IMG/VR virus record: IMGVR_UViG_3300020057_000029
Coordinates: 91,224-155,223 of that record
Strand: one strand, 5' to 3'
Source of the DNA: a virus
Length of the DNA: 64,000 bases
The position numbers and the translations under genes are program-made. Shown here one piece after another: positions 1,245-64,000 of the stretch (its first letter is position 1; each line of letters opens with the position of its first letter). Below the pieces are notes generated by a model. That model made no database searches and was not told where the DNA came from. It was given only the letters and a program-made list of their open reading frames with translations.

Positions 1245-1254
1245 TTTACCCCCA

Positions 1255-3558: not shown

Positions 3559-3563
3559 GTTGA

Positions 3564-4550: not shown

Positions 4551-4567
4551 TTTCTTCCTTTTCTTCC

Positions 4568-4711
4568 TTATTTTAAAACCAGTTTTCCTGATTTCTGTTT
4601 GTCTTGTTCGCGTCTTAGATTTACAAGATCTTTTGACACGTTTCCGATTGTTTTAGATTTTGACGCAGCATCAGTTAGCTTGCTGCGATTTTTGAAATTT
4701 TTATTTTTCAT
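4568..4711 (-). CDS. small basic hypothetical protein (47 aa, not in ORF track)
   Basis: Manual translation MKNKNFKNRSKLTDAASKSKTIGNVSKDLVNLRREQDKQKSGKLVLK fills the operon gap. Confidence 0.55.
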   Translation of the reverse strand: MKNKNFKNRSKLTDAASKSKTIGNVSKDLVNLRREQDKQKSGKLVLK

Positions 4712-5069
4712 TTTTTTTACTTTCAAACACTATCTTATCATTAAAGTAGATTTTTACAAGAACATCTTTCCAAAAAAGATTTCTTACCCATTTCTCTATT
4801 GCTTCAAGGCGCAAACCTAGAGCTTCTTGATTTCTGGATTCGTCTAGCACTAGACGGTAAGACACAAGAGGATTGTGAGTAACTGGCTCATCTTTATCGG
4901 TTTTTTCGTAAGACAGATCGTATTCGAGTTTCGCCTCCTTAATACCGTCAAATGCTATAAAAGGATAGTTCTTGAGATTTAAAAGCTGAACATCACTGAT
5001 TTTATTGCTTAAAACAGCGAGCCTAGACATCTCTTTTACTTTATCAATGCTGTCCTTTTGATCGTTCAT
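4701..5069 (-). CDS. hypothetical protein
   Basis: ATGA-coupled to the nuclease gene. Confidence 0.75.
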   Translation of the reverse strand: MNDQKDSIDKVKEMSRLAVLSNKISDVQLLNLKNYPFIAFDGIKEAKLEYDLSYEKTDKDEPVTHNPLVSYRLVLDESRNQEALGLRLEAIEKWVRNLFWKDVLVKIYFNDKIVFESKKNEK

Positions 5070-6061
5070 ATAATCGCCAGTTCTTTCAAAAAGTTGACCA
5101 TCGCCTGTTTATCCACCCCTGCAATGGGCTCAAATTGGTCCATCAGGAACTGTTCCAGACTTTTACCGGTCTTACGACTGGCAGGCCTAGATTTATCAGT
5201 TATCTTAGATTTTACACTAGCTTTACCCTTAAGGGAAGCTTTTTGTTTATTGACCCATTCGGATGAACCAATAAGCTCTATGGAAGCCCTGGAACCTTCT
5301 GGAATTACCGGAGAGTTGTCCCCTTCTTTCCATTGATATTCTAGGATCGGAGAACACACTTTAGAAGTGTCAACATATTCTTCTGCCAAAATTAAACCTG
5401 TAGTGTCATCGTGGTCTACGATCCATAGGCCTTTTTCCTCGTTTGCATCTGAAGCAGTATCCCATTTGGCTGTGCCTGGATAGATCACTTGCTGACTCTT
5501 GTTGGTCACGTAACGCTGACGATTATGAATGTGACCGCTGATAAGCAGAGGATAATTCAAAAGCTCTGGATCAACCCCGCCTGGTGCGTACATGCCGCTC
5601 TCAAATCTAGACCCAGAATAAGTGGTGTGAGATACGAGGATTTTGGCTCCACAAGTCTGAAGATGATTGGCAGCCTCTACGAATTTATCATTGTCATGGA
5701 TACAGGGTACGTATCCTATAAAATCGATAGCACTTGCGCTATCGATGATTCTTAAGTTCTTTTTACGAATGCGTTTAAATACGTCCAGGGAGTGGTAAGA
5801 CGCCTCGTTGTTTCCAGGCATGTCGTGATTGCCAACCAGGACTACTACTTCGCAAATGTCTGCTAGATGGTCCAGCCAATGATCCCAAAAATCAAGCACC
5901 TCTAAGCGTACCACCGCATGGGTGTGAAAAAGATCGCCTAGGATTTCTATGCGGTTCACGCTATATTTCATAGCAGTATCGACCACGAATTGCAAGAGCT
6001 TTTCGGCTTCGTCTCGATTTGAAGTTTTAATATGCGGATCGCCTAGGCGCAAAATTTTCAT
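5066..6061 (-). CDS. Mre11/SbcD-like (T4 gp47-like) nuclease
   Basis: Calcineurin-like motifs GDPH, GDLFH, GNHD, SH, GHIH; near Rad50-like gene. Confidence 0.92.
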   Translation of the reverse strand: MKILRLGDPHIKTSNRDEAEKLLQFVVDTAMKYSVNRIEILGDLFHTHAVVRLEVLDFWDHWLDHLADICEVVVLVGNHDMPGNNEASYHSLDVFKRIRKKNLRIIDSASAIDFIGYVPCIHDNDKFVEAANHLQTCGAKILVSHTTYSGSRFESGMYAPGGVDPELLNYPLLISGHIHNRQRYVTNKSQQVIYPGTAKWDTASDANEEKGLWIVDHDDTTGLILAEEYVDTSKVCSPILEYQWKEGDNSPVIPEGSRASIELIGSSEWVNKQKASLKGKASVKSKITDKSRPASRKTGKSLEQFLMDQFEPIAGVDKQAMVNFLKELAII

Positions 6062-6216
6062 TTGATTTCCCTACACTGATCTGATAGCCAAGTAATAAAA
6101 AACGGTCCTATTGTCAACATCTTACATCCACAAGGGCAATCGTTTTCAAAACTAAAATTTTTAAACGTTACAGGTCTAATCAGCCCTGCTTGAAATCTTT
6201 TGACAGTGAAATACAT
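6058..6216 (-). CDS. small Cys-containing hypothetical protein (52 aa, not in ORF track)
   Basis: MYFTVKRFQ...DCPCGCK...REIK; abuts the upstream stop and has an ATGA overlap with Mre11. Confidence 0.55.
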   Translation of the reverse strand: MYFTVKRFQAGLIRPVTFKNFSFENDCPCGCKMLTIGPFFITWLSDQCREIK

Positions 6217-6522
6217 TTATTTTTGATCTTCCACGAATTCTATGTGAGAGGCGTCTACGATAATGAAGTCACCTTCTACAGCAGAACTCTTTAAGGTGTT
6301 CTTAGCCCAAGGACTATTGTGCAACACTTCTTCGCGAATGTAAACAGTAGAACCCTTTTTTAGAATAACAGATACACTGTTTATTGAAGCATCGGCATCG
6401 ACTAAAAGTTTTAATCCAATTACCCGATTCTTTTGGCCAACCATTGCGATACCGTGCCTAATCTCTGACTTGAGAGCTTCTGCTTTGTAGGGTTCTAGGA
6501 TCAACTTGTTGAACGATTTCAT
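6217..6522 (-). CDS. divergent GroES/Cpn10-like co-chaperonin
   Basis: 101 aa; NKLILEP, mobile-loop-like RHGIAMVG, LKKGSTVY (cf. VKVGDIV), FIIVDASHIEFVE (cf. LIMSESDILAIVE); GroEL 2.6 kb away. Confidence 0.55.
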   Translation of the reverse strand: MKSFNKLILEPYKAEALKSEIRHGIAMVGQKNRVIGLKLLVDADASINSVSVILKKGSTVYIREEVLHNSPWAKNTLKSSAVEGDFIIVDASHIEFVEDQK

Positions 6523-7565
6523 AGCTTAACGCCTTTCAATTTAAGAACTTTCCTGTGCATCATAGAAAGATTTTTTGCAGCCGCCAACATACGAGATGTT
6601 TCTTCCTGCTGAATGTATTGGCTTTCTATATCCTGAGTCTCATCTGCGGTATACTGATATACCCCCTGACCTTCTTCGTTCACTGTGGCGTCTGCGCTGA
6701 CAGTAGAGGCGGCGCTCATAAGAGAGGATAGCTCAGAAACCGTCACGTTTTCTTTAGGGATAGTTTTGCCATCTAGCTTGTCCTGCTGAAATGCTCTGTT
6801 TACGGCGCTAGCCAGTTCGACTGGATCATTGATGCCTTGGCGACCACGAATGGTGTGAGCCTTATAGAGAACTCTCTTATCCGAAGGATAAAAATGGAGC
6901 ATTGTCTCTGAATAACTATCGATCATGTTTCCTACCATCCTGCCAATGCACACCGAGCGGAACACTGGAGAGTATTTACCAACATATTTATCGACGCCTG
7001 CTGCCAGTCCCATCGCACAGATATTGACAAAATCTATGAGAGTTAAATGGCCCCTTGGAGTCTTCCTGTAAAACAATTTTGCCCTGTTGATTGCCAAAGG
7101 CATATTGTTCTCGATCAACCTGTTTCGAGCTACGTGTACTCTATTGTACAGCTGTTCGGCACGTTTTGGGAAGGGGCCAAGCCAACTTTTACGAATAAAC
7201 TTTATAAGTTGATAATTGATATCAAACTCTTTTAGTTCTTCTATCTTACTCTCGTCTTTGCTACAGGCTTTGATTATTGGGGTGATTTCTTTGCTGAACA
7301 TGACGGCGCTTTCCCTGAAATAGGGTCTGGCAGATAGGATGTTTTTGTTGGTTACGCAAACTTTTTGTAGAAATTTTTTGTAAACCTGAGTAGACTGTCG
7401 ATATTTGAGAATTGTTTCTTTAAACTTTATCTCAGCATCCATAAGCTCTTCTACCTGTTCTTGCTGAACAGTGCCATCCTTGTTCTTTTCCAAGGCCTTG
7501 GTGATTTCTGCAGCCAGTCTAGACAGTGCTGGATCAAATTCGTGTTGTTTTTTAGGGCTTGCCAT
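6519..7565 (-). CDS. phage sigma70-family RNA polymerase sigma factor (probably late), no region 4.2
   Basis: Region 2 pattern ARNRLIENNMPLAINRAK...GLAAGVDKY...FRSVC; protein ends at region 4.1-like LSMMHRKVLKLK. Confidence 0.82.
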   Translation of the reverse strand: MASPKKQHEFDPALSRLAAEITKALEKNKDGTVQQEQVEELMDAEIKFKETILKYRQSTQVYKKFLQKVCVTNKNILSARPYFRESAVMFSKEITPIIKACSKDESKIEELKEFDINYQLIKFIRKSWLGPFPKRAEQLYNRVHVARNRLIENNMPLAINRAKLFYRKTPRGHLTLIDFVNICAMGLAAGVDKYVGKYSPVFRSVCIGRMVGNMIDSYSETMLHFYPSDKRVLYKAHTIRGRQGINDPVELASAVNRAFQQDKLDGKTIPKENVTVSELSSLMSAASTVSADATVNEEGQGVYQYTADETQDIESQYIQQEETSRMLAAAKNLSMMHRKVLKLKGVKL

Positions 7566-7595
7566 ACCCTGTATATATCACAAGCAGGTGAACAT

Positions 7596-9101
7596 CTACT
7601 TGATTTTGATTCTTTTTATTACAGATCGCGAATTACAATATACTTCCAGTTGCTTATCTAGATGGGCCATCATTATAGGGACATCCATTACGGCATAGCC
7701 CCAAATAGTCGAGAGTGGCTTTGGAGCACACTTATCGGCCCAAGGATTTGAGTGACCATGTCTTACGGAGCGTCCTACGGTTCCCTGAGCAGTTTTGATC
7801 TCGGATGCGCCGCCTACCCAGTTGTGGCAGTGATGTACTGGATAAATATTAGTTCCTGTTGCGATACAGGACGTTCCGATAAGAACCTTGACCTCGTTTT
7901 TATTGAACTTTTCTACACTTTCGGATGGATCAACTTTTTCTAATCCTAACTCCAGAAGACGTTCTTTTTTGGACTCTGAGTGAGCAATTGCGTAGGGAAC
8001 TTTTAAAAGCTTTGATAACATGCTTATCTGTTTTAATTCTTCAACTAGAACAAGGGTTTGCTGTCCATACGCCAACGCAACGGCATTTGACATTTTGGCC
8101 ACAAAAGCACAGATGTTTCGATTGCCTAAAAAATGCTCTCTTTTCATTTCTAGGGCATCATTGGAATGGAAGTTTGGATTAGAAGATTCGAGTTCTACTA
8201 TGTTAAAAACGTGCTCTGCTACGATTTTGCGTTCTTTTGCTAACCAGGTGGGCAGGTCATAGACAATGCGACCAATAATTGACTGAAGAAGTTTTTCAGC
8301 CCCATCGTTACGCGTCTGAGTGCCGGAAAAGAAGTGACGACAAGGTACATCTCCTAGGACACCATGGCAGATATCGTTTAAAGAATCAGCGCCCCATGTG
8401 TGACTCTCATCCACACACATCTGCTGGCGAGTGCTGAAAAACTCCCACTCAACGGTTCCCTGTTTTATATTTGCTAAAGAATCGCCAATTGCGATGGTAA
8501 ACTTTTTACCTATGACCTTTTTGCCATCTCCAAAGCCACCCACTTGGGCCTTGCCAAGGTATTTCTCAAACGAATCAAGGAGTTCGTGAAAAATGCTTTT
8601 GCTGGGCACCACAATTACAGTAGAGAAACCTGTGTTGCGGCAAACATGTAATAGAATCGCAGACTTACCTGCTGACGTACAGAGTTCACAGCTTGAGTGT
8701 GGATCTGCTATCATCTCGTTTTCGGTCACAAGTTGGTGTTCCATACGATCATATGGAAATTTTACCTTCCAGCCAACCGCCTTAGGTGTTGGATATACGA
8801 TGGTATTTTCAACTGTGATATTAAAATCAGCCCTTAAGTAAGGGATAGATCCTGGTCGAATGTATTTTTTACCATCTTCTTCCCAAATAAGAGTGTGGTG
8901 AACGGCTTTTTTAAGCTCTTCAAGCTTAAACGCCCATGCAGCACGATTCTTTTCTTTTAACCATTTCATGTTGTAGTGACGCTTCACCATGTGTTGAGCA
9001 GCAGTGTTTGTATAGCTGAGAACTTCGGTCAGCTTTTCTAGTTCTGCGTCGGTAATAGATTCAATGAATGCCTTTGAAGGCATGGTAATTTTAAGATGCA
9101 T
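7596..9101 (-). CDS. SF2 DExH helicase (UvsW-like)
   Basis: TSAGKS Walker A, VVPS, VDESH, SGT motif III, QGTVGRSVR motif VI. Confidence 0.9.
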   Translation of the reverse strand: MHLKITMPSKAFIESITDAELEKLTEVLSYTNTAAQHMVKRHYNMKWLKEKNRAAWAFKLEELKKAVHHTLIWEEDGKKYIRPGSIPYLRADFNITVENTIVYPTPKAVGWKVKFPYDRMEHQLVTENEMIADPHSSCELCTSAGKSAILLHVCRNTGFSTVIVVPSKSIFHELLDSFEKYLGKAQVGGFGDGKKVIGKKFTIAIGDSLANIKQGTVEWEFFSTRQQMCVDESHTWGADSLNDICHGVLGDVPCRHFFSGTQTRNDGAEKLLQSIIGRIVYDLPTWLAKERKIVAEHVFNIVELESSNPNFHSNDALEMKREHFLGNRNICAFVAKMSNAVALAYGQQTLVLVEELKQISMLSKLLKVPYAIAHSESKKERLLELGLEKVDPSESVEKFNKNEVKVLIGTSCIATGTNIYPVHHCHNWVGGASEIKTAQGTVGRSVRHGHSNPWADKCAPKPLSTIWGYAVMDVPIMMAHLDKQLEVYCNSRSVIKRIKIK

Positions 9102-9134
9102 GTCCTATTATATCAAATTAGCAAAAAATAACAA

Positions 9135-9147
9135 CACGTATGATATA
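9135..9147 (+). promoter_or_regulatory. extended -10-type promoter CACGTATGATATA upstream of groEL
   Basis: Identical 13-mer also at 12398-12410 upstream of the terminase. Confidence 0.6.
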
Positions 9148-9173
9148 GAATATTATCAACCAGGAGATTAACC

Positions 9174-10946
9174 ATGTCATTTCGCAAGGCAAAAAGCGCA
9201 CCTAAAATTTTTGAAGTAAACCCTAGTAGGCTCAGGAATAAGGTTTTAAGCACTATGCACCGTGTTTCCGAAGCGGTTGGCTCAACTATGGGTCCAGGCG
9301 GTAGAAACGTATTGATTGAATCAGACTTTCCAGGTATTCCTAACAAAAACACCAAAGACGGAGTGACTGTTTTTAAGAGCCTTGGTGCTATTGACCCATA
9401 CGAACATCTTATCATAGAACAAGCCCGTGATGTGGCTCAACGTACTGCTACTGAAGCTGGCGATGGTACTACCACGGCAACCGTGCTCGCGTACAATATC
9501 ATCTCTAATTTATTCGAATTCTGTGAAAAAAACAAGAAGTACAGTCCTCAAAAAGCTGCTCGTCGCATCGCTAAAATAACACGCGAACGCCTTGTCCCTT
9601 ATATCAAAGAGCGCAGTATCCCTGTTGGAGTAGACAATCAAGAATTACTCAAAATGGTAGCCAAGGTATCCGCCAATGGCGATGAAGACATGGCGGCTGC
9701 TGTAATTAAGGCCTTTGAAGAAATTGGATACGGAGACGCCTCTCACGTAACAATCCGAGAACTATCAGGCCCTCAAGGCTATAAAGTCGAACGTATCGAC
9801 GGATTCCCCATTCCTGCTGGCTATGAAGAGTCTATTGGCAAATTTCACACTGCCTTTATTAATGACCAAGCAAATCAACGTTGTTTTCTTGAGAACCCCC
9901 TGTTTATCCTGTTTGACGGTCAGGTAAACGATCTCATGGCGTTCCACGATCTTCTAGACGTTCTTGGTAAAAAATACGTAGAAGACGGCGACAGTGATTA
10001 TAAAAACGTTGTAATCGTAGCTCATGGTTTTTCTGAAAACGTGCTCACAAATCTTGCTTTCAACTTCTCAAACCCCTCTACCCTGAACGTTGTGCCCCTG
10101 GTTACCCCAATGGCTCAATTCATCAATAGCCAGCTTCAGTTTCTGCAGGATTTAGCCGCTTTTACCGGCTCTCGCGTATTCGGCATGAAAGATCAGATCA
10201 ATACTGCTACTATTGCCGATTTAGGCGGCAGCATGGAATCTTTTGAGTGCTATCGTTTTCGCTCCACTGTGATTGGTGATCCAGACCCAACCAATATTGA
10301 GGTTCGTGCTGAAGAGCTTAGAATCATGAAAGATCGTTCTGAAAGTCAAGCTGAGAAGATCTTCTTAGAAGAGCGTATTGGTAAGATCACTAACGGTATT
10401 GCTAAATTAACCATTTACGGCGGATCTAACGGCGAGCTCAAAGAAGCGCACGATCGCTGCGAAGACGCGGTATGTGCGGTTCGTTCTGCAATTTCTCACG
10501 GTGCTCTACCAGGTGGATGTCGTATTGCCCTAGACATGACAATGCTGCTTATGACCGAACTAGAAGCAGGTGACCCAGCCCGTGACGTTTTAGTGCCTTC
10601 TTTGTTAAGCCTACATCACAAACTGCTCGACAATGCTGGATATACTCCAGCCGAATCTAAAGAAGTTTTGGAAATCCTTTTGAACGATCCTTCTATCGTA
10701 TATGACATTGAGAATCAGGTTTACGGTGACGCAAAAGAATTAGGCCTGTTCGATGCTACAAAGGCTGTACAAGAGTCCTTGTCAAACGCAGTATCTCTTG
10801 CGAATGTGCTTGGAACAATGGGCGGCTTAGTATGTCATCCTCGTGATGATGTTTTTGAACGGACAGAGGCTAGAGCAGATGCTGACTTTGGCCGTGTAAC
10901 CTCCAACCCAAATGCGTACGTTAATGAAGCTAATAATCGCCCATAA
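9174..10946 (+). CDS. groEL: GroEL-like chaperonin
   Basis: TMGPGGRNV, TKDGVTV, GDGTTTATVLA, RCEDA, PGGC; lacks the GGM tail; AGGAG RBS. Confidence 0.95.
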   Translation: MSFRKAKSAPKIFEVNPSRLRNKVLSTMHRVSEAVGSTMGPGGRNVLIESDFPGIPNKNTKDGVTVFKSLGAIDPYEHLIIEQARDVAQRTATEAGDGTTTATVLAYNIISNLFEFCEKNKKYSPQKAARRIAKITRERLVPYIKERSIPVGVDNQELLKMVAKVSANGDEDMAAAVIKAFEEIGYGDASHVTIRELSGPQGYKVERIDGFPIPAGYEESIGKFHTAFINDQANQRCFLENPLFILFDGQVNDLMAFHDLLDVLGKKYVEDGDSDYKNVVIVAHGFSENVLTNLAFNFSNPSTLNVVPLVTPMAQFINSQLQFLQDLAAFTGSRVFGMKDQINTATIADLGGSMESFECYRFRSTVIGDPDPTNIEVRAEELRIMKDRSESQAEKIFLEERIGKITNGIAKLTIYGGSNGELKEAHDRCEDAVCAVRSAISHGALPGGCRIALDMTMLLMTELEAGDPARDVLVPSLLSLHHKLLDNAGYTPAESKEVLEILLNDPSIVYDIENQVYGDAKELGLFDATKAVQESLSNAVSLANVLGTMGGLVCHPRDDVFERTEARADADFGRVTSNPNAYVNEANNRP

Positions 10947-54332: not shown

Positions 54333-54814
54333 TAGATTTTAATGAGTTCTTAGGAACATTGCAGGCAGAAGCCTTGTCGGATAAATTTCAGCCCACCCAA
54401 ACATCGGTCTGGGAGAGCATTTGTCGCCAATATTCTAAGAAGTTTTTTACTCCACTACATGTCGTTCTGAAGATGGACCCAGAGTTTGTCGTGCGTCAGA
54501 ACTATGCTGATCAAATGGATGAAGCTAATTTCGACGACCATCTTGAGAATTTTATTGACCTGCTCAAACATCTAGAAGATCCTGAATACGATGCTGATAC
54601 TGAGAAGGATTTGAAAAATTTTATTGCTCAAGCCGAGGCCGAAGAAGAAGATCGCAAATCCAAAGGTTTGCCTCTTAGCTCAATCTTTCGCAAGGGCCAT
54701 AAGATCAGCAAGGTTAAAAAGAAGGCTGAAAAAGTTGTTCAGCAGGAAGTTGATCAACCCAAGTCTGGCAGTATTGACCTTTCGCACCTTGGCGATGACG
54801 AAAATGAACGCTAA
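54329..54814 (+). CDS. hypothetical (possible second tail chaperone)
   Basis: ICRQYSKKFFTPL; acidic. Confidence 0.5.
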   Translation: MIDFNEFLGTLQAEALSDKFQPTQTSVWESICRQYSKKFFTPLHVVLKMDPEFVVRQNYADQMDEANFDDHLENFIDLLKHLEDPEYDADTEKDLKNFIAQAEAEEEDRKSKGLPLSSIFRKGHKISKVKKKAEKVVQQEVDQPKSGSIDLSHLGDDENER

Positions 54815-54844
54815 CAGCCCTTGGATTACTGATTGCGTAGCGCT

Positions 54845-55054
54845 TTATCCCAATTTCTTTTTGGCTCCATAATAAAATACTGGATGCGATCCGTCAAGAT
54901 ATTCTTCTTGAGCATCAGGTCTGTGAATCTCTAGGTGGCCCCTGACAAGGTTAAAGATGTCACCCCATTGACAGTCATGATCGTCCACGAGTTCATCCAG
55001 CACCGTTTCCAGGCTTAACAAGGTATCGCCAAGTCTCTTTTTCTTTTTGCTCAT
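54845..55054 (-). CDS. hypothetical protein
   Basis: Early-region small gene. Confidence 0.65.
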   Translation of the reverse strand: MSKKKKRLGDTLLSLETVLDELVDDHDCQWGDIFNLVRGHLEIHRPDAQEEYLDGSHPVFYYGAKKKLG

Positions 55055-55079
55055 CTAGTTTTCCTTCCAAGCTCCTACT

Positions 55080-55430
55080 TTAGGGATCTGTTGATAGATT
55101 CGTATTGAACTGTTCAAAATGGTTAAGCAATTCGTTTACGGCCAATGCCTGATCAAGAAGAAGTCTTTTGAAATCAAAATTTTTAATTTCATTGACAAGC
55201 TTTAAGCGCATTCTTTCTTCTATCATCTCTTTTGTGAGAGGTTCAATTCGACCAAGAGACCCATAACCATGCTTGTCAAAAGTGGTTTCGTATCCGTTGA
55301 TATTGGCTACTACAATTTTGCCAGTGGGGGTGATCTTTTCTACAATACCAATCGTCCAATCACCTCTGTTGGAGATGGCAACTTTGTTGCCTTTGTTTAA
55401 ACTCTTAAGGAATTCTCCGTGATTTTTCAT
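55080..55430 (-). CDS. hypothetical (SH3-like barrel)
   Basis: LNKGNKVAI...VEKITPTGKIVV. Confidence 0.65.
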   Translation of the reverse strand: MKNHGEFLKSLNKGNKVAISNRGDWTIGIVEKITPTGKIVVANINGYETTFDKHGYGSLGRIEPLTKEMIEERMRLKLVNEIKNFDFKRLLLDQALAVNELLNHFEQFNTNLSTDP

Positions 55431-55966
55431 GCCGCCTCCGGCAATTCACTTTTGGTTTCAGGCTTAATATACTCGCCGACTGATCCACCGCCACTCTCTT
55501 TAAAGTAATAAAGTGTTTGACCCAATTCATTGGCCATCTTTTGAGCTTTAGCACGCGTTTCGGCACGATCAAAAGATCCTTCGGTAAACTCTTCCTCAAG
55601 ATAAAGAACATCCTTGAACACTTTCCCAGACATATAGACATCCTCATAGATCATTGACTTAGAAATAATCACACGGCTAGAGTAGGTGTTGCGCAAATCT
55701 ACTTCTGTATCTTTGAACATATCGTTAGCATTGGAATGCCAGGGGCCTTTAAGATCAATCGTTGAGCCATCATCAAGCTGAAAGCTCAACAGGGAACCGC
55801 CAAAACCTTTGCTGTTAGGATCACCAGATACGTATATGTTGTCAGCAGCAAATTTACCGACCTTCTCCAGCCATATATTACCAGATCTACCAATATGCTT
55901 GCGATAGACGTTTGCCACAGCTTCACCCTGTCCAGATTTCATTTGTATCCTAATTCTATAGTCCAT
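55427..55966 (-). CDS. hypothetical phage protein
   Basis: GFGG...LKGPWHSN; AGGAG RBS. Confidence 0.7.
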   Translation of the reverse strand: MDYRIRIQMKSGQGEAVANVYRKHIGRSGNIWLEKVGKFAADNIYVSGDPNSKGFGGSLLSFQLDDGSTIDLKGPWHSNANDMFKDTEVDLRNTYSSRVIISKSMIYEDVYMSGKVFKDVLYLEEEFTEGSFDRAETRAKAQKMANELGQTLYYFKESGGGSVGEYIKPETKSELPEAA

Positions 55967-55975
55967 ATTCGCTCC

Positions 55976-56503
55976 TTAAATTTTTTTATCGGCCAAAATA
56001 GTATCAGTCAGGATTGCCCCAGTCAGGTCAGCCCCAGTCAGGTTTGCCCTAATCAGGTTTGCCCCAAACAGGTTTGCCTTGGTCAGGTCAACCCAAGTCA
56101 GGTTTGCCTCGAACAGGTCAGCCTGAGACAGGTCAGCCTGAAACAGGTTTACCCAATACAGGTTTGCCCTAGTCAGGTTTGCCTTAGACAGGTCAACCCC
56201 AGACAGGTTTACCCAATACAGGATTGCCCCAAACAGGTTTGCCCCAGACAGGTTTGCTCCAGACAGGTTTGCTCCAGACAGGTTTGCTCCGCGTAGGTTT
56301 GCCACAATCAGGTTTGCCCTGAACAGGTCAGCCCCAATCAGGTCAGCCCTAGTCAGGTTTGCCCCAGACAGGCTTGCCCCAGACAGGTCAGCCCCAGACA
56401 GGTCAGCCCCAATCAGGTCAGCCTTTTCCCCACCTTCTTCACCTTTTAAAAACATAACATGTAGTTTAAGGATATTATCTAAAATTTGCTTATCCATATT
56501 CAT
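55976..56503 (-). CDS. pentapeptide repeat protein
   Basis: A[DN]LXX repeats. Confidence 0.92.
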   Translation of the reverse strand: MNMDKQILDNILKLHVMFLKGEEGGEKADLIGADLSGADLSGASLSGANLTRADLIGADLFRANLIVANLRGANLSGANLSGANLSGANLFGAILYWVNLSGVDLSKANLTRANLYWVNLFQADLSQADLFEANLTWVDLTKANLFGANLIRANLTGADLTGAILTDTILADKKI

Positions 56504-56506
56504 CTC

Positions 56507-57094
56507 TTAAATTTTCTTATCGGCTAAAATAGTACTAGTCAGGTCAACCCTAGTCAGGTCAACCCCAGACAGGTCAGCCCCAGAAAGGTTTGCCCCAGAC
56601 AGGAAAGCCCCAGAAAGGTTTGCTAAAGTCAGGTCAGCCCCAGACAGGTTTGCCCCGCGAAGGTCAGCCCCAGTCAGGTTTGCCCCGGTCAGGTTTGCCC
56701 CGTAAAGGTCAGCCCAAGCCAGGTTTGCCTGAGACAGGTTTGCCAAAGCCAGGAAGGCCCCAGACAGGACAGTCCTGAACAGGTCAGCCTTAGTCAGGTT
56801 TGCCTCAGACAGGTCAGCCCCAGACAGGTAGGCCCCAGACAGGTTTGCCCCAGACAGGTCAACCCCAGACAGGAAAGTCCTAATCAGGTTTGCCCCGCGA
56901 AGGTTTGCCCTGTAAAGGCTTGCCCCGTAAAGGTTTGCCCTAGACAGGTTTGCTAAAGACAGGTTTGCTAAAGACAGGTTTGCCAAAGACAGGTTTGCCC
57001 CAGACAGGTTTGCCCTTTCCCCACCTTCTTCACCTTTTAAAAACATAGCATGTAGCTTAAGGATGTTATCTAAAATTTGCTTTTCCATATTCAT
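56507..57094 (-). CDS. pentapeptide repeat protein
   Basis: A[DN]LXX repeats. Confidence 0.92.
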   Translation of the reverse strand: MNMEKQILDNILKLHAMFLKGEEGGERANLSGANLSLANLSLANLSLANLSRANLYGASLYRANLRGANLIRTFLSGVDLSGANLSGAYLSGADLSEANLTKADLFRTVLSGAFLALANLSQANLAWADLYGANLTGANLTGADLRGANLSGADLTLANLSGAFLSGANLSGADLSGVDLTRVDLTSTILADKKI

Positions 57095-57107
57095 CTCTTA
57101 AATTTTT

Positions 57108-57356
57108 TTATCGGCCAAAAATAGTATCAGTCAGGTTTGCCCCAGTCAGGTCAACCCCAGACAGGTCAGCCTTAGACAGGTTTGCCCAAGCCAGGTTTGC
57201 CCCAGCCAGGTAAGCCCCAGAAAGGTTTGCTAAAGTCAGGTCAGCCCCAGTCAGGTCAACCCCAGACAGGTTTGCCCTTTCCCCACTTTCTCCACCTTTT
57301 AAAAATATAGCGTGTAGTTTAAGGATGTTATCTAAAATTTGCTTTTCCATAGTCAC
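57108..57356 (-). CDS. short pentapeptide repeat protein
   Basis: Same N-cap; tail shifted relative to the ILADKKI end of paralogues. Confidence 0.85.
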
Positions 57357-57394
57357 CTATTAAAATTTTACCAAGGCATGTTAAGAGCAATAGC

Positions 57395-57544
57395 TTATGC
57401 AATCAACACTTCTCGGGCTTTTTCGTAAACAGTATGAGAGAAGAAGGTATGCCCATCAACTTGCACATTGTAAATGCCATTCTCGCGTACTACGGCTAGT
57501 TCGGTACCATTAGGAAGAATCATCTTGAACATTACGGTTTTCAT
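57395..57544 (-). CDS. small hypothetical protein (49 aa, not in ORF track)
   Basis: MKTVMFKMILPNGTELAVVRENG...VLIA*. Confidence 0.55.
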   Translation of the reverse strand: MKTVMFKMILPNGTELAVVRENGIYNVQVDGHTFFSHTVYEKAREVLIA

Positions 57545-57729
57545 TAGTTACTCACTTTCGCTTTTAGGTTTTTGACATCTGAATTTGCCTTGGCTTGTCT
57601 TTCCATACATATCTCTTTATAAAGCCCTTCAAATTGCCCTATCTTGTCTTTACAGTCAGCCATGCTGGCCTGTCTGCGTTCAAAGGCACCTTTGCGGCGT
57701 ATATTTTTATTCAATCGTGCTCTGCTCAT
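57544..57729 (-). CDS. small basic protein
   Basis: AAGGA RBS. Confidence 0.6.
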   Translation of the reverse strand: MSRARLNKNIRRKGAFERRQASMADCKDKIGQFEGLYKEICMERQAKANSDVKNLKAKVSN

Positions 57730-58023
57730 CTATTCCTTTTTGTACTTTGAATAACTGTTTAAGGTCAATTTGCTTATGCGGTCAACCAAACCATAGGCAT
57801 CTTTCAAGGCTAGTTTTTTCGCTCTTTCAAAGCGCATAGGACCAAGCACCGTAGTGGCCTTGTCGAATACGTGAGCGCAGTAGTTTTCATTGCCAGCATA
57901 ATTAGTCAAACACTGGATAAGCTTGCCATCAATCAAGAAAAAACGCTTTCGAGAATCTGCTGCTGCAAAAGCTTTTTTAAAGGATACGGCCTCTCCATTT
58001 AGCAACATTGCTTTCTTAGCCAT
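57730..58023 (-). CDS. hypothetical protein
   Basis: Start re-called to MAKK at 58023. Confidence 0.65.
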   Translation of the reverse strand: MAKKAMLLNGEAVSFKKAFAAADSRKRFFLIDGKLIQCLTNYAGNENYCAHVFDKATTVLGPMRFERAKKLALKDAYGLVDRISKLTLNSYSKYKKE

Positions 58024-58207
58024 TTCTCGCCCTTTGTTCGTTTGCTTCATCAGCAATTTTAATTAACTGATCTAGGGCAATGGTGATGGCATCACTCTTG
58101 CTCCCACCAAAAGACGTTTGTACAATAACCACATCTTTTGCCGTAAAATCTACAGTTATGGTTGTTAAAGCGCCTTTGTGTCTAAAATTAAAAATTGAGT
58201 TTTCCAT
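58016..58207 (-). CDS. hypothetical protein
   Basis: GAGG RBS. Confidence 0.6.
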   Translation of the reverse strand: MENSIFNFRHKGALTTITVDFTAKDVVIVQTSFGGSKSDAITIALDQLIKIADEANEQRARNG

Positions 58208-58386
58208 TAATATTCCTCGTCAGCTTCTTCTTCCATTTCGTAGTCAAGGCTTTCAGGTTCGTCATCCAGGGCTTCAAGCTCTTCTTTAGCAGCTTCTAGA
58301 ACATCACGATCCATCATTTCCTTATCATCGGAATCAGTTTTAACTTCCAGCCTCAAAACCACTTTTACTTTTATCTTTTTTAACAT
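58207..58386 (-). CDS. small highly acidic protein (59 aa, not in ORF track)
   Basis: MLKKIKVKVVLRLEVKTDSDDKEMMDRDVLEAAKEELEALDDEPESLDYEMEEEADEEY*. Confidence 0.6.
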   Translation of the reverse strand: MLKKIKVKVVLRLEVKTDSDDKEMMDRDVLEAAKEELEALDDEPESLDYEMEEEADEEY

Positions 58387-58493
58387 ACTATTCCCCTTTT
58401 TTAAAATCCAGGTAGGCCATTACAATGCCACCAATTACTGTCCACCATATTATCAGAAAAAACACTCCTATCATAGCCAGGCACAGAAAAAGC

Positions 58494-59096
58494 TTAAAAA
58501 GGTATCGGCGTGCTTTGTTCGGCTTCATAACGCGCTCTTTCATTCCAAATCTTATAATTCACAATCTCAGAAATATGGCCTTTTGAAATACCATACATTT
58601 GAGAAATCCTACTATAAGGTATACCATCTTTGCTTAATGCTCTGATATCTTCCGCAATCGCAAAGGTCAATACTGCGTTACGAATAGGGCTATGGCCTAG
58701 TTCATTAATGGCGTGCAAAGTGTTTTCTTTACATTCGATCTGCTCAAGATTGTCCCTGTGATTGTTGGCTTTATTGCCATCCTTATGATTTACAACCATT
58801 TTGCAATCCAACTCTCCCACAAACTTCTGAAAAACCATGCGGTGAACTCGTAGCTTTTTGCGTGTGCTACGACCTTTCTTTTGGATGCGCAGATTGAGAA
58901 CCCTATAGCCATCACCATTTGCTATGTCACAATTACGAACCTCCCCATTGGGCAACAGACTGATGCCGTTTGTATTGGCTCTCGTAAAAACTTCACCGCT
59001 TTCAGTCACGGTAAAACGCTCATCTGCCAGTACCGCCCGAATCAAAGCATCGTTTTTAGCAGTCAGTCTATGAGTCTTGCTTTTGTAATTTATCAT
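58494..59096 (-). CDS. HNH homing endonuclease with C-terminal HTH
   Basis: RVHRMV...VNHKDGNKANNHRDNLE...EN..HA. Confidence 0.88.
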   Translation of the reverse strand: MINYKSKTHRLTAKNDALIRAVLADERFTVTESGEVFTRANTNGISLLPNGEVRNCDIANGDGYRVLNLRIQKKGRSTRKKLRVHRMVFQKFVGELDCKMVVNHKDGNKANNHRDNLEQIECKENTLHAINELGHSPIRNAVLTFAIAEDIRALSKDGIPYSRISQMYGISKGHISEIVNYKIWNERARYEAEQSTPIPF

Positions 59097-59163
59097 TTCC
59101 GACCCTTTTCTACAACCAAATGTTTTACATCCCACATAGACGTATTGTCAATATACATTCGCT

Positions 59164-59487
59164 TCATGATTCGTCCAAGTCTGTTTCTAACATTTCGTCA
59201 ACCTGACTAGCCCGTGACAAGTACGATTCAGAACTCTTTCTATGGATGCTTTCCATATCTTCGGATGCATCCTGCATTGCCTGTACCGTCAATCTTAGGA
59301 AAGCATCGCATCCATAACTGTGCATCATTTTCTGCAAGATGCCCCTATCCGTTGTGATATTTTTCTGAAGGCTTTGTAGCCGCTCACTAATAGAAAGCGC
59401 ATCCCTCGCCGCCTTTTCCGCCCATGCCTCCCGCGCCGCCTCTTTCCTTATTGGCTCGGGGTAGCCGCCATGTTTAGGTTTTTTCAT
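59164..59487 (-). CDS. hypothetical protein
   Basis: Start re-called to MKKPK at 59487, downstream of the sigma54-like promoter. Confidence 0.55.
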   Translation of the reverse strand: MKKPKHGGYPEPIRKEAAREAWAEKAARDALSISERLQSLQKNITTDRGILQKMMHSYGCDAFLRLTVQAMQDASEDMESIHRKSSESYLSRASQVDEMLETDLDES

Positions 59488-59513
59488 ATTGTTTTCTCTC
59501 ATATATGGAGTAT

Positions 59514-59592
59514 TGCAGGATTAGTGCCACTCTCAACTACTTAATTTCATTAAGAGGGCCTGTTTTTAAATCGAGTATCTTTTGATCAATCG
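59514..59592 (-). promoter_or_regulatory. sigma54-type (-24/-12) promoter with IHF-like site and upstream activator-like box
   Basis: TGGCACTAATCCTGCA; TAATTTCATTAAG; CTTTTGATCAATCG, all shared with 62807-62897. Confidence 0.65.
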
Positions 59593-59610
59593 CCTATTTC
59601 TTGGCCTTTG

Positions 59611-59916
59611 CTATACGAACATAGGGAAGTTTTCATCAAAGCTATCTTCTGTTATTTGCATTCCAAACTCATTGTAAATTGCATCCTCAGAGGCTATGGT
59701 AGCCATGGATCGTAGCTCTTTACCTATAGGACTAAGCATAATGCGCTTAGTAGCAGATTCAATTGAAGTGGAATGCTCAACCATACTATCAAGCACTGCT
59801 TGCCGCTTGCCGTCAAGCTTTAGATTGCCATCAATCAAATTCAGCACTGCATTCTTTAAGTTACGCTTTACAGCTTGTATCTGTTGATCGCTAGTTAAAT
59901 CATTCCACTTTTTCAT
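59611..59916 (-). CDS. hypothetical protein
   Basis: Start re-called to MKKW at 59916 (AGGAG RBS). Confidence 0.65.
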   Translation of the reverse strand: MKKWNDLTSDQQIQAVKRNLKNAVLNLIDGNLKLDGKRQAVLDSMVEHSTSIESATKRIMLSPIGKELRSMATIASEDAIYNEFGMQITEDSFDENFPMFV

Positions 59917-59944
59917 AAAATTCACTCCTAAGTATTGTATTTGA

Positions 59945-60616
59945 TTAGTGATAAAACAAGGCACCAGGCGCAATATTTCCATCCATGTTTAGGATTAGAG
60001 CAAAAGGCCCATGACCACTTTGAGCATAGGCTATGCTGAATTTTTTTACGCCTCTTCGCATACTCTTCGACCCACTTTTGGTTACAATGCCATGGTTGCC
60101 ATCATTGTTGATCAGTTTAGTACCATCAACACTAAGGATAGAACCATCATCACTTGCCATGCTAAAGCCTGTATGGCCATCACGCTCAATAACAATAAAG
60201 CCAGTGCAAGTGATTTTATAGTTTTTGTTAAGGAACAGCGATTGAATAGACGTGGGCAAAATGTTATTGGGTTGTCCTCCTGCTACGCTAGGTTGATTAA
60301 ATCCACTTTTGTTAAGAAAGGCATACTTAGTACCAGTCAATACCAATACACCCTGCCCAGCATTGTATCCAGGGCTAGAACTAGACAGCCATTGTCCGCT
60401 AGCAACTTCCCTTACAGAACAGCTAAGTCCAGAAGATAGCGCATTTTTCCCTTGGCTTAATCGGTATTTATTTTCCACATCCACAAGGTTTTGTACATTT
60501 TCACAAGGTTCGGTTACTGTTACCGTGTCTTTTACCACTACGGTTTTAGTTCTTTTGCCACATCCTGTAAACGCGATACTGGCCCAAATTGCAATTGCTA
60601 CATAGATTAGTTTCAT
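59945..60616 (-). CDS. lipoprotein with PA14-like domain
   Basis: Lipobox FTGC; SDDGSILSVDG..LINNDGNH. Confidence 0.8.
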   Translation of the reverse strand: MKLIYVAIAIWASIAFTGCGKRTKTVVVKDTVTVTEPCENVQNLVDVENKYRLSQGKNALSSGLSCSVREVASGQWLSSSSPGYNAGQGVLVLTGTKYAFLNKSGFNQPSVAGGQPNNILPTSIQSLFLNKNYKITCTGFIVIERDGHTGFSMASDDGSILSVDGTKLINNDGNHGIVTKSGSKSMRRGVKKFSIAYAQSGHGPFALILNMDGNIAPGALFYH

Positions 60617-60650
60617 ATATTTCCCTTTAATTAATTGTTAAGAATTACTT

Positions 60651-60899
60651 TTAATACTTGTTCTTTTTCTCATACATTGCCCACAAAACATCTTGCAGTT
60701 TCTTAAATTCCTCCTCTGCCCTATTGTAATTTTCTATCAATTCCTGACTGACTTCGATGCAGCATTCCGCGATATCTTCTTCATTAAAATAGTAGCAATC
60801 TTTTAACTCTTGCTCTGTCTCAAGATGGATTCGCCATGTATCATTTTTATTCAATCGTACTTTTACGCTTGTCGCCTCATTAGTCTTAGAAGTGTTCAT
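60651..60899 (-). CDS. acidic hypothetical protein
   Basis: ORF track. Confidence 0.6.
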   Translation of the reverse strand: MNTSKTNEATSVKVRLNKNDTWRIHLETEQELKDCYYFNEEDIAECCIEVSQELIENYNRAEEEFKKLQDVLWAMYEKKNKY

Positions 60900-61200
60900 T
60901 TTTCCCCTTCAAAGCCCTATCCAACGCTTTTACCAAAGCAGCATCACGAGCAGCCTTAGCGGCATCTCTCGCAGCGCCCCACGCCTTTGCCGCTGCTATT
61001 ACGTCGCGTGCTTGAATGTTTTTATCTCCAGCTTTTTCATTGCACATTTCCTTCCACTTAGCTTTATCTATCACCGCCGCCCTTTCCCATTCTCTCACCT
61101 CTTTATGCGCCACCCACGCAGCGCCCCACGCCATACCCGCTGCCACTACGGTTACTACTGCTATTCCCATACATATACCGTCAAGTTCTGATTTTTTCAT
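60886..61200 (-). CDS. membrane-anchored hypothetical protein with Ala-rich repeats
   Basis: Start re-called to 61200. Confidence 0.55.
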   Translation of the reverse strand: MKKSELDGICMGIAVVTVVAAGMAWGAAWVAHKEVREWERAAVIDKAKWKEMCNEKAGDKNIQARDVIAAAKAWGAARDAAKAARDAALVKALDRALKGKNEHF

Positions 61201-61775
61201 CGCACGTCCTTCGTTTCGATTCCAGTTATAATCATTTCGCGTAACTTGATCTCTTGTGCGTCCCACGCAGAATCCCACGCAGCACCACGAATATCACTCG
61301 CAACAATCCTCGCGGCAGCCCTCGCAGCATCATTCGCAGCAGCACGAATATCACTCGCAACCCACACAACAGCCCACACGGCAGCCCTCGCAGCAGCAAA
61401 CTCAGCATCCCACACCGCAGAACTCACCTTCATCGCAGTATTCCACAAAGCAGCCCTCGCAGAATCCCTCGCAGCATCCAATTCGGCATTAGTTGCGTTT
61501 CCATTTGCGTAGGCTTCTGCTACGTCAAGCGCCTTTATACTTCGTTCGTCATGCATTAGATGCTGCACTTGTCTCGCGCACCCTACTGCATAAAGGCGCA
61601 TAAACTTCTCAGAGAAAAACTCCTGGTGCATTAAGAGCCAGAGCCGGTCAGGAAAAGGACATTCTTTTACATTTAAAATATCCAGCGCGTTACCGGTCCA
61701 GTTTTCCGGCAAATATTTGACCGGATCGTGACAAGGCTTTAGTGCGCGCAAGTCTTCTAGTGTGAATTGTTTCAT
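61197..61775 (-). CDS. Imm5-like / AAWDAA-repeat helical protein
   Basis: LRALKPC...DRLW...CARQV...DERS...AEAYANG + A/W/D repeats. Confidence 0.7.
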   Translation of the reverse strand: MKQFTLEDLRALKPCHDPVKYLPENWTGNALDILNVKECPFPDRLWLLMHQEFFSEKFMRLYAVGCARQVQHLMHDERSIKALDVAEAYANGNATNAELDAARDSARAALWNTAMKVSSAVWDAEFAAARAAVWAVVWVASDIRAAANDAARAAARIVASDIRGAAWDSAWDAQEIKLREMIITGIETKDVR

Positions 61776-61805
61776 AGCTTCTTTCTCCTAAAAATCATTA
61801 TTGTG

Positions 61806-62783
61806 CTAGGCCGCCTTTTTTTCAGGCATAATTTCAGCGATAGAAAAGTATTGCTGAAATTGTCCGCTTTCTTCATGAATAAACATGAAAGTTTTTTCAG
61901 GCATCTTCTCTTGATATTCCCGCAAAATTGCTTCTGGTGTACCTTCCCGCGTAGGCTTGCCTTCAAAGTACCCCCCTCTACCGTCTACCATGCCGCCAAT
62001 GAAAGTTTCAAGGCGTTCAATCTTGCCCTCGTTTTCCAAATCGGTAGCGGCAGCGCGTTCAATTGCCTGTTTAGGATTGTTAGCGTAGGTATCGGCAAAG
62101 TTTAATTTGCAGTGTTCGTCAAAGCATCCACAATTAGTGCCCAACATTCCGAGGTCTTCAACATGCCTGAAATTGTAGACATAGCCATCATCATTGCTAT
62201 CCAACATTCCGCATTCATCGCATCTTGTGGTATCGTCCTCAAAACCATAGTCCTCTACATTTGCAACTTCCTCGAATTGCTCATGGTGATACCCAAGCAA
62301 GCGCATAACACTGTAATAATTCCAGCCTTCCTTAACTAGAACATTTTTGTCCTCTTGAGCGTGTTCGCCTACTTGCGAAATGCCATATTCTCCATTGTTA
62401 ATAATTTCTTGCGCTTGATCTTTAGTGATGCGCTTGACGATCTTATTGGTAGGCTTAAGCGTGCCCTTATCCTGAAGGGTTACAAAGCCGATATAAACCG
62501 TAGAAAACTCTTGCTTATCGCCGCAAAACATTTTAGGTTTCACGATCTTTTCCACCATATCCATAGCATGGGTTACCTGTGTATGTTTGGAATATTCCTT
62601 AACCTCAAAGGTTAACGCTTTTTCGCCAACGCGTAGGCCAAGCTTTTCCGCCAACGCTTTTAGCTCGGGTAGACCTGCGCTATCATCAACCAATTCGGGC
62701 AGAACTTCAAACTTGGTAGAACAAGAAGAGAACTTTGCACCGTCAGATTCATAAGGACTATGGAATTTAATCAATCGTTTCAT
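61806..62783 (-). CDS. acidic hypothetical protein with Zn ribbon
   Basis: CDECG...CGC; GAGG RBS; first gene after the sigma54-like promoter. Confidence 0.75.
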   Translation of the reverse strand: MKRLIKFHSPYESDGAKFSSCSTKFEVLPELVDDSAGLPELKALAEKLGLRVGEKALTFEVKEYSKHTQVTHAMDMVEKIVKPKMFCGDKQEFSTVYIGFVTLQDKGTLKPTNKIVKRITKDQAQEIINNGEYGISQVGEHAQEDKNVLVKEGWNYYSVMRLLGYHHEQFEEVANVEDYGFEDDTTRCDECGMLDSNDDGYVYNFRHVEDLGMLGTNCGCFDEHCKLNFADTYANNPKQAIERAAATDLENEGKIERLETFIGGMVDGRGGYFEGKPTREGTPEAILREYQEKMPEKTFMFIHEESGQFQQYFSIAEIMPEKKAA

Positions 62784-62806
62784 TTATCACCTCTTATTAA
62801 GTATAA

Positions 62807-62897
62807 TGCACTGGTTATGCCAAAAGTTAAAAGCCTAATTTCATTAAGTTAACCAATTTCATCAAGGCTTCAATCCTGTAGAACTTTTGGTCAATCG
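62807..62897 (-). promoter_or_regulatory. sigma54-type promoter with IHF-like site and upstream activator-like box
   Basis: TGGCATAACCAGTGCA; TAATTTCATTAAG; CTTTTGGTCAATCG. Confidence 0.65.
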
Positions 62898-62905
62898 TAC
62901 AATGC

Positions 62906-63424
62906 TTATTCGATCTTAGCCTTATCGGCCAAAATAGTACCAGACAGGCTTGCCCCAGACAGGTCAGCCTTAGACAGGCTTGCCCCAGACAGGTCAGCCC
63001 AAGACAGGTTTGCTTTGGTCAGGTCAGCCCTGGTCAGGTCAGACCCGTAAAGGCTTGCCCTAGAAAGGTCAGCCCTAGTCAGGTCAGCCCCGTAAAGGCT
63101 TGCCCTAGAAAGGTCAACCCCAGACAGGTCAGCCTCAGACAGGTCAGCCTCAGACAGGTCAGCCCCAGTCAGGTTTGCCTTAGACAGGTTTGCCCCGAAC
63201 AGGCTTGCCCCAGTCAGGAAAGCCCCGAACAGGCTTGCCCCGAACAGGTTTGCCCCAGTCAGGTTTGCCCTAGTCAGGTCAGCCTCAGACAGGTTTGCCC
63301 CACGAAGGTCAGCCTCAGACAGGTTTGCCTCAGTCAGGTTTGCCCTTTCCCCAGCCTTTTCATCTTTTAAAAATATAGCATGCAGCTTAAGGATGTTATC
63401 TAAAATTTGCTTTTCCATATTCAC
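62906..63424 (-). CDS. pentapeptide repeat protein
   Basis: Same N-cap [13 protein letters not shown]; A[DN]LXX repeats. Confidence 0.92.
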   Translation of the reverse strand: MNMEKQILDNILKLHAIFLKDEKAGERANLTEANLSEADLRGANLSEADLTRANLTGANLFGASLFGAFLTGASLFGANLSKANLTGADLSEADLSEADLSGVDLSRASLYGADLTRADLSRASLYGSDLTRADLTKANLSWADLSGASLSKADLSGASLSGTILADKAKIE

Positions 63425-63613
63425 CTAATTTTGTTTTTGTTTGTTCAATTGTTTTTCTATTTTATCTGTCAGAGTATCGCATTTATGCCCCATGCGTTCA
63501 TCAAAATCAACTTCTTCTTCTATTTCTCTATCACCAACATAGGGCAAGGCTTTTAATAGCAAACTCACCTCTTTAACTGTCAAATTCAATTTTATAGTTT
63601 TAACGGTCTTCAT
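63425..63613 (-). CDS. hypothetical protein
   Basis: GAGG RBS. Confidence 0.6.
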   Translation of the reverse strand: MKTVKTIKLNLTVKEVSLLLKALPYVGDREIEEEVDFDERMGHKCDTLTDKIEKQLNKQKQN

Positions 63614-63622
63614 ACATTCACC

Positions 63623-64000
63623 TCAAATTTGCTTTTTAAAAATATCTGCACAGGTTTTAATGAAATTACCATACATTTCAACTTGTTTTTCTGTATAACC
63701 TTCTTCTCTGCCTATTTCTTTAAAGTTTTCAAGCCAAAAAGAAATAGTATTTTTGTGACAGCCTATAGCAATTTCATTTAATCCGAAAAAATAAGCAGTG
63801 TGTTTTTCAAACTGAAAACTTAAAATTTCCTTATCGGCCAAAATAGTACCAGACAAGTCAGCCCCAGACAGGTCAGCCCCAGACAGGATAGCCCCAGACA
63901 GGTCAGCCCCAGACAGGATAGCCCCAGACAGGATAGCCCCAGACAGGTCAGCCCCAGTCAGGTTTGTCCAAGACAGGTCAGCCCTAGTCAGGTTTGCCCT
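63623..64000 (-). CDS. pentapeptide repeat protein with extra C-terminal domain (5' end outside window)
   Basis: Frame open from 64000; repeats, then ILADKE...[13 protein letters not shown]. Confidence 0.85.

Follow-up and report, generated by a model that had tools for sequence, protein, structure and literature searches.

The last 64,000 nucleotides of the phage genome G000 (IMG/VR virus record IMGVR_UViG_3300020057_000029, 155,223 bp), referred to here as the window, contain two intergenic cassettes, P1 and P2, in which a sigma54-type -24/-12 element is preceded by a site matching the integration host factor (IHF) consensus and, further upstream, by a conserved box where an activator could bind. 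Together with seven related copies elsewhere in the genome, they make up a set of nine. Judging from sequence, we consider it likely that these portable sigma54-class cassettes stand in front of groups of small accessory genes within a single co-oriented arm, and we propose with the same moderate confidence that they act as promoters of the host sigma54-RNA polymerase, with IHF-assisted activation from a compact enhancer. The accessory genes would probably need a host sigma factor and an activator not encoded by the phage.

Nine cassettes in one minus-strand arm

An earlier note on the window had described three ordered elements in the two intergenic regions, and all three are present where it placed them, reading 5' to 3' on the minus strand, which carries the genes from 54.8 kb to the window end and is thus the coding strand at both sites. 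The GG-N10-GC spacing is found in both -24/-12 elements, TGGCACTAATCCTGCA in P1 and TGGCATAACCAGTGCA in P2. The middle element is an identical 13-mer, CTTAATGAAATTA (59542-59554 and 62836-62848), separated from the -24 box by 12 and 13 nt, which corrects the 13-14 nt first reported. The upstream box CGATTGAYCAAAAG (59579-59592 and 62884-62897) is shared as well, at gaps of 49 and 61 nt rather than 50 and 62, and the difference of 12 nt, described as about one helical turn, recurs independently in the relative G010. Neither the 13-mer nor the upstream box has another exact copy in the window or the 155-kb genome. The 13-mer had been called IHF-like; an IHF-type site is indeed present, and the actual match to the consensus WATCAANNNNTTR, at -43 to -31 with one mismatch in P1 and two in P2, coincides with the 13-mer only at the latter's promoter-proximal end.

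In the upstream box the conserved core reads AAAAGTTCTAC, for which P1 has the variant AAAAGATACTC, also found at L034:12949 and L044:771 in related phages. Across the cassettes, the box has the consensus A.TG.CT-AAAAGTTCTAC at about -80 to -70, and is preceded, about 20 nt upstream, by a weaker direct repeat resembling TGTCTAAG; in P2 it lies at about -92 to -82, because the spacing is 12 nt longer. With the predicted +1 set 12 nt downstream of the C in the GC, transcription from P2 would start at 62796, abutting the Shine-Dalgarno sequence AAGAGGTGA (62787-62795) and leaving a leader of 12-13 nt to the ATG at 62783, in agreement with the predicted start directly 5' of the ribosome binding site. 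At P1 the predicted +1 at 59503 precedes an in-frame ATG (59502) by one base, or the ATG at 59488 by 15 nt. P2 also contains a 9-bp inverted repeat formed by CCAAAAGTT (62878-62888, upstream box) and AACTTTTGG (62823-62831, before the -24 box), which is not conserved in the other cassettes.

Scanning the whole genome for the tripartite motif, a check suggested in the earlier note, reveals seven more minus-strand sites and so gives nine co-oriented cassettes in one arm, P1 and P2 being the last two. The arm is about 18.5 kb long in all and spans both record ends, resuming at genome positions 1-9300. Its seven left-arm sites (genome positions 590-8662) carry TGGCAYYGTCAATGCA in a conserved module of about 100 bp, with a T tract preceding the IHF core. 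The two window copies form a distinct subtype, whose middle box is nearer to that of the closest relative, G001, than to that of the other seven.

The distribution of the sites was assessed with a scoring matrix that was trained on related phages only and then run over the whole of G000. P1 is the best hit in the 155-kb genome (Table 1). The matrix yields 26 hits of at least 12 bits, compared with 0-5 in shuffles, and 9 of the 26 fall in the minus-strand intergenic DNA of the arm, which comprises 0.9 % of strand-positions (binomial P about 7e-13).

Other readings of the intergenic regions were tried and rejected. The sigma70 reading fails for want of a -35/-10 pair in constant register across the cassettes; sigma70-like matches are no commoner than in shuffles, although P1 is overlapped by one, TTGAGA-16-AATACT. 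The folds of the two gaps are weak (z -1.6 and -2.2) and unlike each other, which led to rejection of a structured RNA element, and Rfam gives no match in 54800-64000 at E up to 1. The perfect dyad GCATTG-T-CAATGC fills the -24/-12 spacer in five of the seven left-arm cassettes (genome 590-8677); it is absent from both window sites and from the relatives, which excludes it as the feature common to the cassettes, and it may be an added operator specific to the left-arm subtype.

Conservation among relatives and genes behind the cassettes

The closest relative, G001 (portal 71 % identical), has four copies of the cassette in a terminal minus-strand arm of its own, with spacers between TGGCAY and TGCA that differ from those of G000, and a pattern scan of IMG/VR adds seven further contigs. 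The relatives hold at least 17 cassettes, and in G001, G009, and G010 the sites are grouped in one co-oriented arm of 10-20 kb. The more distant relatives G002-G008 and Myxococcus phage Mx1 show no cassette cluster in the site scan. The sigma54 consensus is described as TGGCAC-N5-7-TTGCT (PMC12316311), and a -24/-12 element of the TGGCAC-N5-TTGCW type with GG and GC 10 nt apart is found in the nine G000 cassettes and in these at least 17 of the relatives, the GG/GC spacing being invariant across all of them. All cassettes, in G000 and in relatives alike, are directed at the start of a gene 20-45 nt further on (20-30 nt for the nine of G000 in the whole-genome scan), a geometry compatible with transcription starting about 12 nt downstream of the GC.

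Since the selection of cassettes itself fixed the -24/-12 boxes, the check independent of selection is the upstream box. In whole records, exact AAAAGTTCTAC is followed by GG-N10-GC in 7/7 cases in G000, 2/2 in G001, 2/2 in G009, 2/2 in G010, and 1/1 on a phage-like contig of the metagenome-assembled genome (MAG) G012; G011 is the exception, with 1/2. Two sites, P2 and one in G010, have 54-55 nt between the upstream box and the -24 box; in the others the distance is 42-44 nt.

Column information, calculated for 21 non-redundant cassettes from G000 and its relatives, amounts to 1.7-2 bits at -26 to -22 and -14 to -11 and to 1 bit at -21, which is C or T, and is nil in the spacer from -20 to -15; T-9/A-8, TT at -33/-32, AA at -43/-42, and the upstream box are moderately informative. 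TGGCAY and TGCA are kept in all cassettes around 6 uninformative nucleotides. A match to WATCAANNNNTTR with at most one mismatch stands at the same position in 19 of 26 cassettes (4 perfect, 15 with one mismatch), compared with a background rate of 0.001 per position in the genome, and the N4 within it varies freely, as is expected of IHF sites. The WATCAANNNNTTR site lies between the activator-type site and the promoter. Conserved and free positions are those expected of sigma54 and IHF sites, supporting the sigma54/IHF reading.

The same cassette occurs in the 79-kb phage G011 (IMGVR_UViG_3300049595_004693), in which 9 of 213 open reading frames (ORFs) are common to G000. Where identified, these encode dUTPase, phosphoesterase, subtilase, and virion-type proteins, and none is regulator-like. 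A divergent intergenic region of G011 (L040:7429-7911) contains three tandem perfect CTGGCAC-N5-TTGC[AT] sites on one strand, together with one TGGTAT variant and the cassette's own site, and two perfect sites on the other strand. These seven sigma54-consensus sites lie within about 280 bp among C-rich tracts and may represent either several promoters or an array for sigma54 binding. The sharing of the cassette by two phages with no regulator-like gene in common favours host factors as its readers; lateral spread of the cassette would likewise explain the sharing. A phyletic profile for a cassette-linked phage factor was not discriminating, with 31 clade-specific genes.

The arm contains small ORFans, at least seven pentapeptide-repeat proteins, an HNH endonuclease, and a PA14 lipoprotein-like protein (Table 1). 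Gene content behind the cassettes differs greatly among relatives. The PA14-domain gene with a lipoprotein-like N-terminus (59945-60616) lies five genes behind P2, and a homologue with 45 % identity (L044:9073-9777) lies directly behind a cassette in another phage contig, indicating that genes move relative to cassettes. There are no terminator-like sites on the minus strand in the intergenic gaps between the genes behind P2 or between cassettes. By analogy with the small ORFans, pentapeptide-repeat proteins, and HNH gene that it holds, the arm may be expressed early.

Table 1. Features of the two window cassettes, the genes behind them, and a second intergenic motif (window positions unless marked; scores from the matrix trained on relatives)
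Feature	Position	Strand	Remarks
P2 upstream box CGATTGACC-AAAAGTTCTAC, activator-type site	62878..62897	minus	exact AAAAGTTCTAC; -24 box 55 nt on
Second imperfect copy of the 13-mer, CTTGATGAAATTG	62854..62866	minus	2 mismatches; inside the extra 12 nt of P2 relative to P1
P2 box B: 13-mer and IHF-like core AATTAGGCTTTTA	62828..62848	minus	core 62828-62840, 2 mismatches to WATCAANNNNTTR
P2 -24/-12 element TGGCATAACCAGTGCA	62807..62822	minus	predicted +1 about 62796; 17.2 bits
P1 upstream box CGATTGATC-AAAAGATACTC	59573..59592	minus	43 nt from -24 element; variant also in relatives
P1 box B: 13-mer and IHF core AATTAAGTAGTTG	59534..59554	minus	core 59534-59546, 1 mismatch, at -43 to -31
P1 -24/-12 element TGGCACTAATCCTGCA	59514..59529	minus	predicted +1 about 59503; 20.3 bits
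Genes behind P2	59611..62783	minus	325-aa ORFan, 192-aa protein (phrog_18326), two small ORFs, 223-aa PA14 lipoprotein-like protein, 123-aa ORFan
Genes behind P1	54845..59502	minus	107/112-aa basic ORFan, HNH endonuclease (58494-59135), small ORFs, further ORFans to arm end
Three pentapeptide-repeat proteins behind P1	55976-57356	minus	
Upstream arm part, pentapeptide-repeat genes	62906..64000	minus	record ends within one; seven more cassettes at genome 1-9300
AATCTTA intergenic sites	15009, 22844, 25567(-), 32070, 42568, 46144, 51977		seven more outside the window

Pentapeptide-repeat genes are located at 55976-57356, 62906-63424, and 63623-64000 in the window and at genome positions 1283-1924 and 5393-6106. 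Both ends of the linear record (CheckV 96 %, 43 % G+C) lie inside one such gene, which suggests an assembly break at this repeat and a circularly permuted genome. Some restriction-type palindromes are strongly avoided in G000 (GGATCC 0 and CGATCG 2, with about 27 expected for each), and CCGG occurs at 0.49 of expectation.

A second promoter-like motif, AATCTTA, stands 15-45 nt upstream of many structural or late gene starts. G000 has 49 copies, 14 of them in the intergenic 6.8 % of the genome and none in the sigma54-type arm. The motif is probably a late promoter class with a reader other than a factor recognised here, and its presence at structural genes and absence from the arm indicate that promoter classes are partitioned by region.

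Candidate readers of the cassettes

The profile search of the G000 proteins gives no match to Sigma70_r2, T7-type RNA polymerase, the Sigma54 DNA-binding domain, or Sigma54_activat. The sole Sigma70_r4 match is weak, below threshold, and inside the HNH endonuclease gene, and the large proteins are DNA polymerase and virion or structural parts. No PF00158 match, GAFTGA motif, or suitable P-loop protein was found in G000 either. With no phage sigma factor or RNA polymerase detected, the host RNA polymerase must be used, and with no phage-encoded bacterial enhancer-binding protein (bEBP), the activator would be a host protein. A putative sigma54 has been claimed for Pectobacterium phage Q19 (PMC7693777), a weak HHpred assignment that is irrelevant to G000.

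From the observed motifs, their register, conservation, and distribution, the binding events, start sites, timing, and the identity and origin of the activator can be predicted as follows. Host RNA polymerase with host sigma54 would bind TGGCAY-N5-NTGCA and form a closed complex. IHF would occupy the WATCAANNNNTTR core at -43 to -31 and bend the DNA sharply, the T/A tract upstream of the core extending its footprint to about -60. In the known IHF-DNA structure the bend lies a few base pairs upstream of the core; if the same holds here, the geometry would bring a protein positioned near -75 round to the -12 region, which is where sigma54 activators act; the bend would thus deliver the protein bound at the upstream box to its target. 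This protein, or a partner, would be an ATP-dependent activator of the bEBP type supplied by the host, and the start of transcription, about 12 nt past the GC, would leave a very short leader at P2 and a near-leaderless mRNA at P1.

The wider claim of the earlier note, a sigma54/IHF/bEBP architecture, is supported by sequence and comparison in its first two parts and in the existence of a phase-locked box, as all three elements recur in the nine cassettes and in relatives. The motile phase that the note gave as an example of a gating host state is not supported. Matching the upstream box to host bEBP regulons, as the note had suggested, identified no host regulon. Several points weigh against the proposed host sigma54 promoters, and this is the first of them. 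Searching 185,579 species genomes (one each) for the composite of box and sigma54 element finds only one phage-like contig and one probable chance hit in an archaeal MAG, and the exact 11-mer with its spacing may be too strict a probe for host regulons. A literature search for the box sequence found only unrelated primers. The box itself is a single non-palindromic 11-mer at about -75, whereas typical bEBP enhancers are more symmetric and lie farther from the promoter. Only 4-5 nt separate the IHF core from the -24 box, a gap that is wider in textbook cases, and leaders as short as the predicted 11-13 nt are unusual. Such sites are lacking in Mx1, the only cultured relative, and none of the sequencing runs listed as holding G000 is an RNA run.

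The host adds to these points. By its protein matches, G000 is a distant relative of the contractile-tailed Mx1, the only close cultured relative of its portal, terminase, DNA polymerase, and chaperonin (33-48 % amino-acid identity), and a near-identity search of the region against cultured phages gave no match. The uncultured relatives range from 34 to 61 % in G+C, so that kinship with Mx1 does not settle the host of G000. The G000 sequence is present in at least five microbial-mat metagenome runs. Cyanobacteria are common in such mats. They rarely have rpoN (PMC12316311), which given the mat origin also speaks against sigma54 promoters. A cyanobacterial host is itself disfavoured by the lack of HIP1 (GCGATCGC) sites in G000 and by its strong Shine-Dalgarno use, and the need for both sigma54 and IHF argues against cyanobacteria and actinobacteria. 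The sole hint at a host comes from the phage-like contig of the composite search, which is related to G000 and was binned in a MAG of the Cellvibrionaceae with rpoN, binning being weak evidence. When 20 kb were searched by BLAST in 277 genomes from this candidate family, only short, noise-level matches came back, no tRNA genes were found in G000, and a thymidylate kinase atlas search was uninformative.

A first alternative is that the cassettes are promoters at which host RNA polymerase is redirected by a phage factor that has escaped recognition, such as a divergent sigma or an appropriator of the MotA/AsiA kind, the likeness to -24/-12 elements being convergent and the box being the site of this factor. 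The second private motif, AATCTTA, makes some phage-directed promoter recognition likely, and a box that is non-palindromic, without counterpart in the 185,579 bacterial species genomes, and unaccompanied by an encoded bEBP would be natural under such a scheme. We nevertheless regard it as unlikely: no sigma-like or RNA polymerase gene was detected in G000, the conserved letters and their spacing are exactly the sigma54 consensus, with textbook CTGGCAC-N5-TTGCA sites in G011, the two phages share the cassette and no regulator-like gene, and the co-located IHF-consensus site fits a sigma54 architecture.

Slightly less probable still is a second alternative, in which sigma54 holoenzyme is bound and has a main role other than initiation, the cassettes serving as an insulator or roadblock between one another, as a sink for host sigma54, or as a recombination substrate for cassette shuffling. 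The seven G011 sites, on both strands within about 280 bp, resemble a binding array more than a promoter, the genes behind cassettes vary greatly between relatives, as for the PA14 gene in L044 and G000, and the lack of terminators between cassettes means that read-through could express the genes anyway. However, every cassette in G000 and its relatives is aimed at a gene start, and the phase-locked box and IHF site are features of activation rather than of passive binding. As for recombination, any repeated promoter recombines, which leaves the conserved positions unexplained.

That the two window sites are merely diverged duplicates resembling sigma54 and IHF sites by chance is highly improbable: their shared exact 13- and 14-mers do mark them as paralogous, and the pair alone cannot separate ancestry from function, but in five other phage records the copies have diverged everywhere except in the consensus positions and the spacing, and the distribution statistics speak against chance.

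Returning to host sigma54 promoters, a more far-reaching idea can be put forward tentatively, as one that we hold to be possible and somewhat doubtful. The cassette might be a mobile plug-in of unrelated phage lineages in the same kind of host, tying accessory genes (probably for counter-defence, including pentapeptide-repeat DNA mimics) to one host sigma54 activator, which would act at -75 through an unusually compact enhancer folded by IHF. A physiological signal of the host, and not an infection clock, would in that case license expression, and the G011 array may also titrate host sigma54.

Comparison with known promoters

Known phage programmes use sigma70, phage sigma factors, or phage RNA polymerases, and to our knowledge sigma54-type promoter cassettes are rare in published phages. 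If the proposal is right, the arm genes would be silent unless a host AAA+ activator is active, and the virus would be reading the state of its host. The architecture also constrains the host, which should have both sigma54 and IHF. Furthermore, the fixed and very short enhancer-promoter distance, in two helical phases, would make these cassettes a compact natural test case for sigma54 looping geometry.

The promoter-early stem-loop (PeSL) cassettes of T4-type phages combine a sigma70 early promoter with a stem-loop in modules bordering variable small genes. The G000 cassettes are likewise repeated promoter-bearing modules, and the genes behind them differ between relatives. They are not PeSL-type cassettes, as they have no sigma70 early promoter in constant register and no conserved stem-loop. 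In lacking a -35/-10 pair in constant register, they are like enhancer-dependent sigma54 promoters.

Among these, the pspA promoter of Escherichia coli is a sigma54 promoter with PspF and IHF, the IHF site being located between enhancer and promoter (PMC3709507). The G000 cassettes share with this type the -24/-12 GG-N10-GC element, the upstream IHF-consensus site, and an activator-type site on a fixed helical face. They differ from it in that the IHF core abuts the -24 box and the whole unit is portable and present in nine copies, in that the enhancer lies at about -75 and consists of a non-palindromic 11-mer with a weak direct repeat, compared with more distant dyad-symmetric sites, and in that they reside in a virus encoding neither sigma54 nor a bEBP.

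The closest published phage precedent is Pseudomonas aeruginosa phage YuA, which, as summarised in PMC10914365 with reference to Ceyssens et al. 2008, has sigma70 and sigma54-like promoters and is said to depend on both. A single sigma54-like promoter region (P015) is tied there to a promoter trap and a mapped 5' end (PMC10914365). Like G000, YuA is a phage without its own sigma54, and part of its transcription reportedly depends on the sigma54 of its host. It is unrelated to G000, never appearing among the G000 protein matches, and in contrast to its single region, a whole arm of G000 is headed by nine cassettes, all of which combine an IHF-type site with an upstream box and are known from sequence alone. 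What sets G000 apart from both pspA and YuA is therefore the combination of repeated portable cassettes, a whole arm affected, a compact phase-locked enhancer, and no encoded activator.

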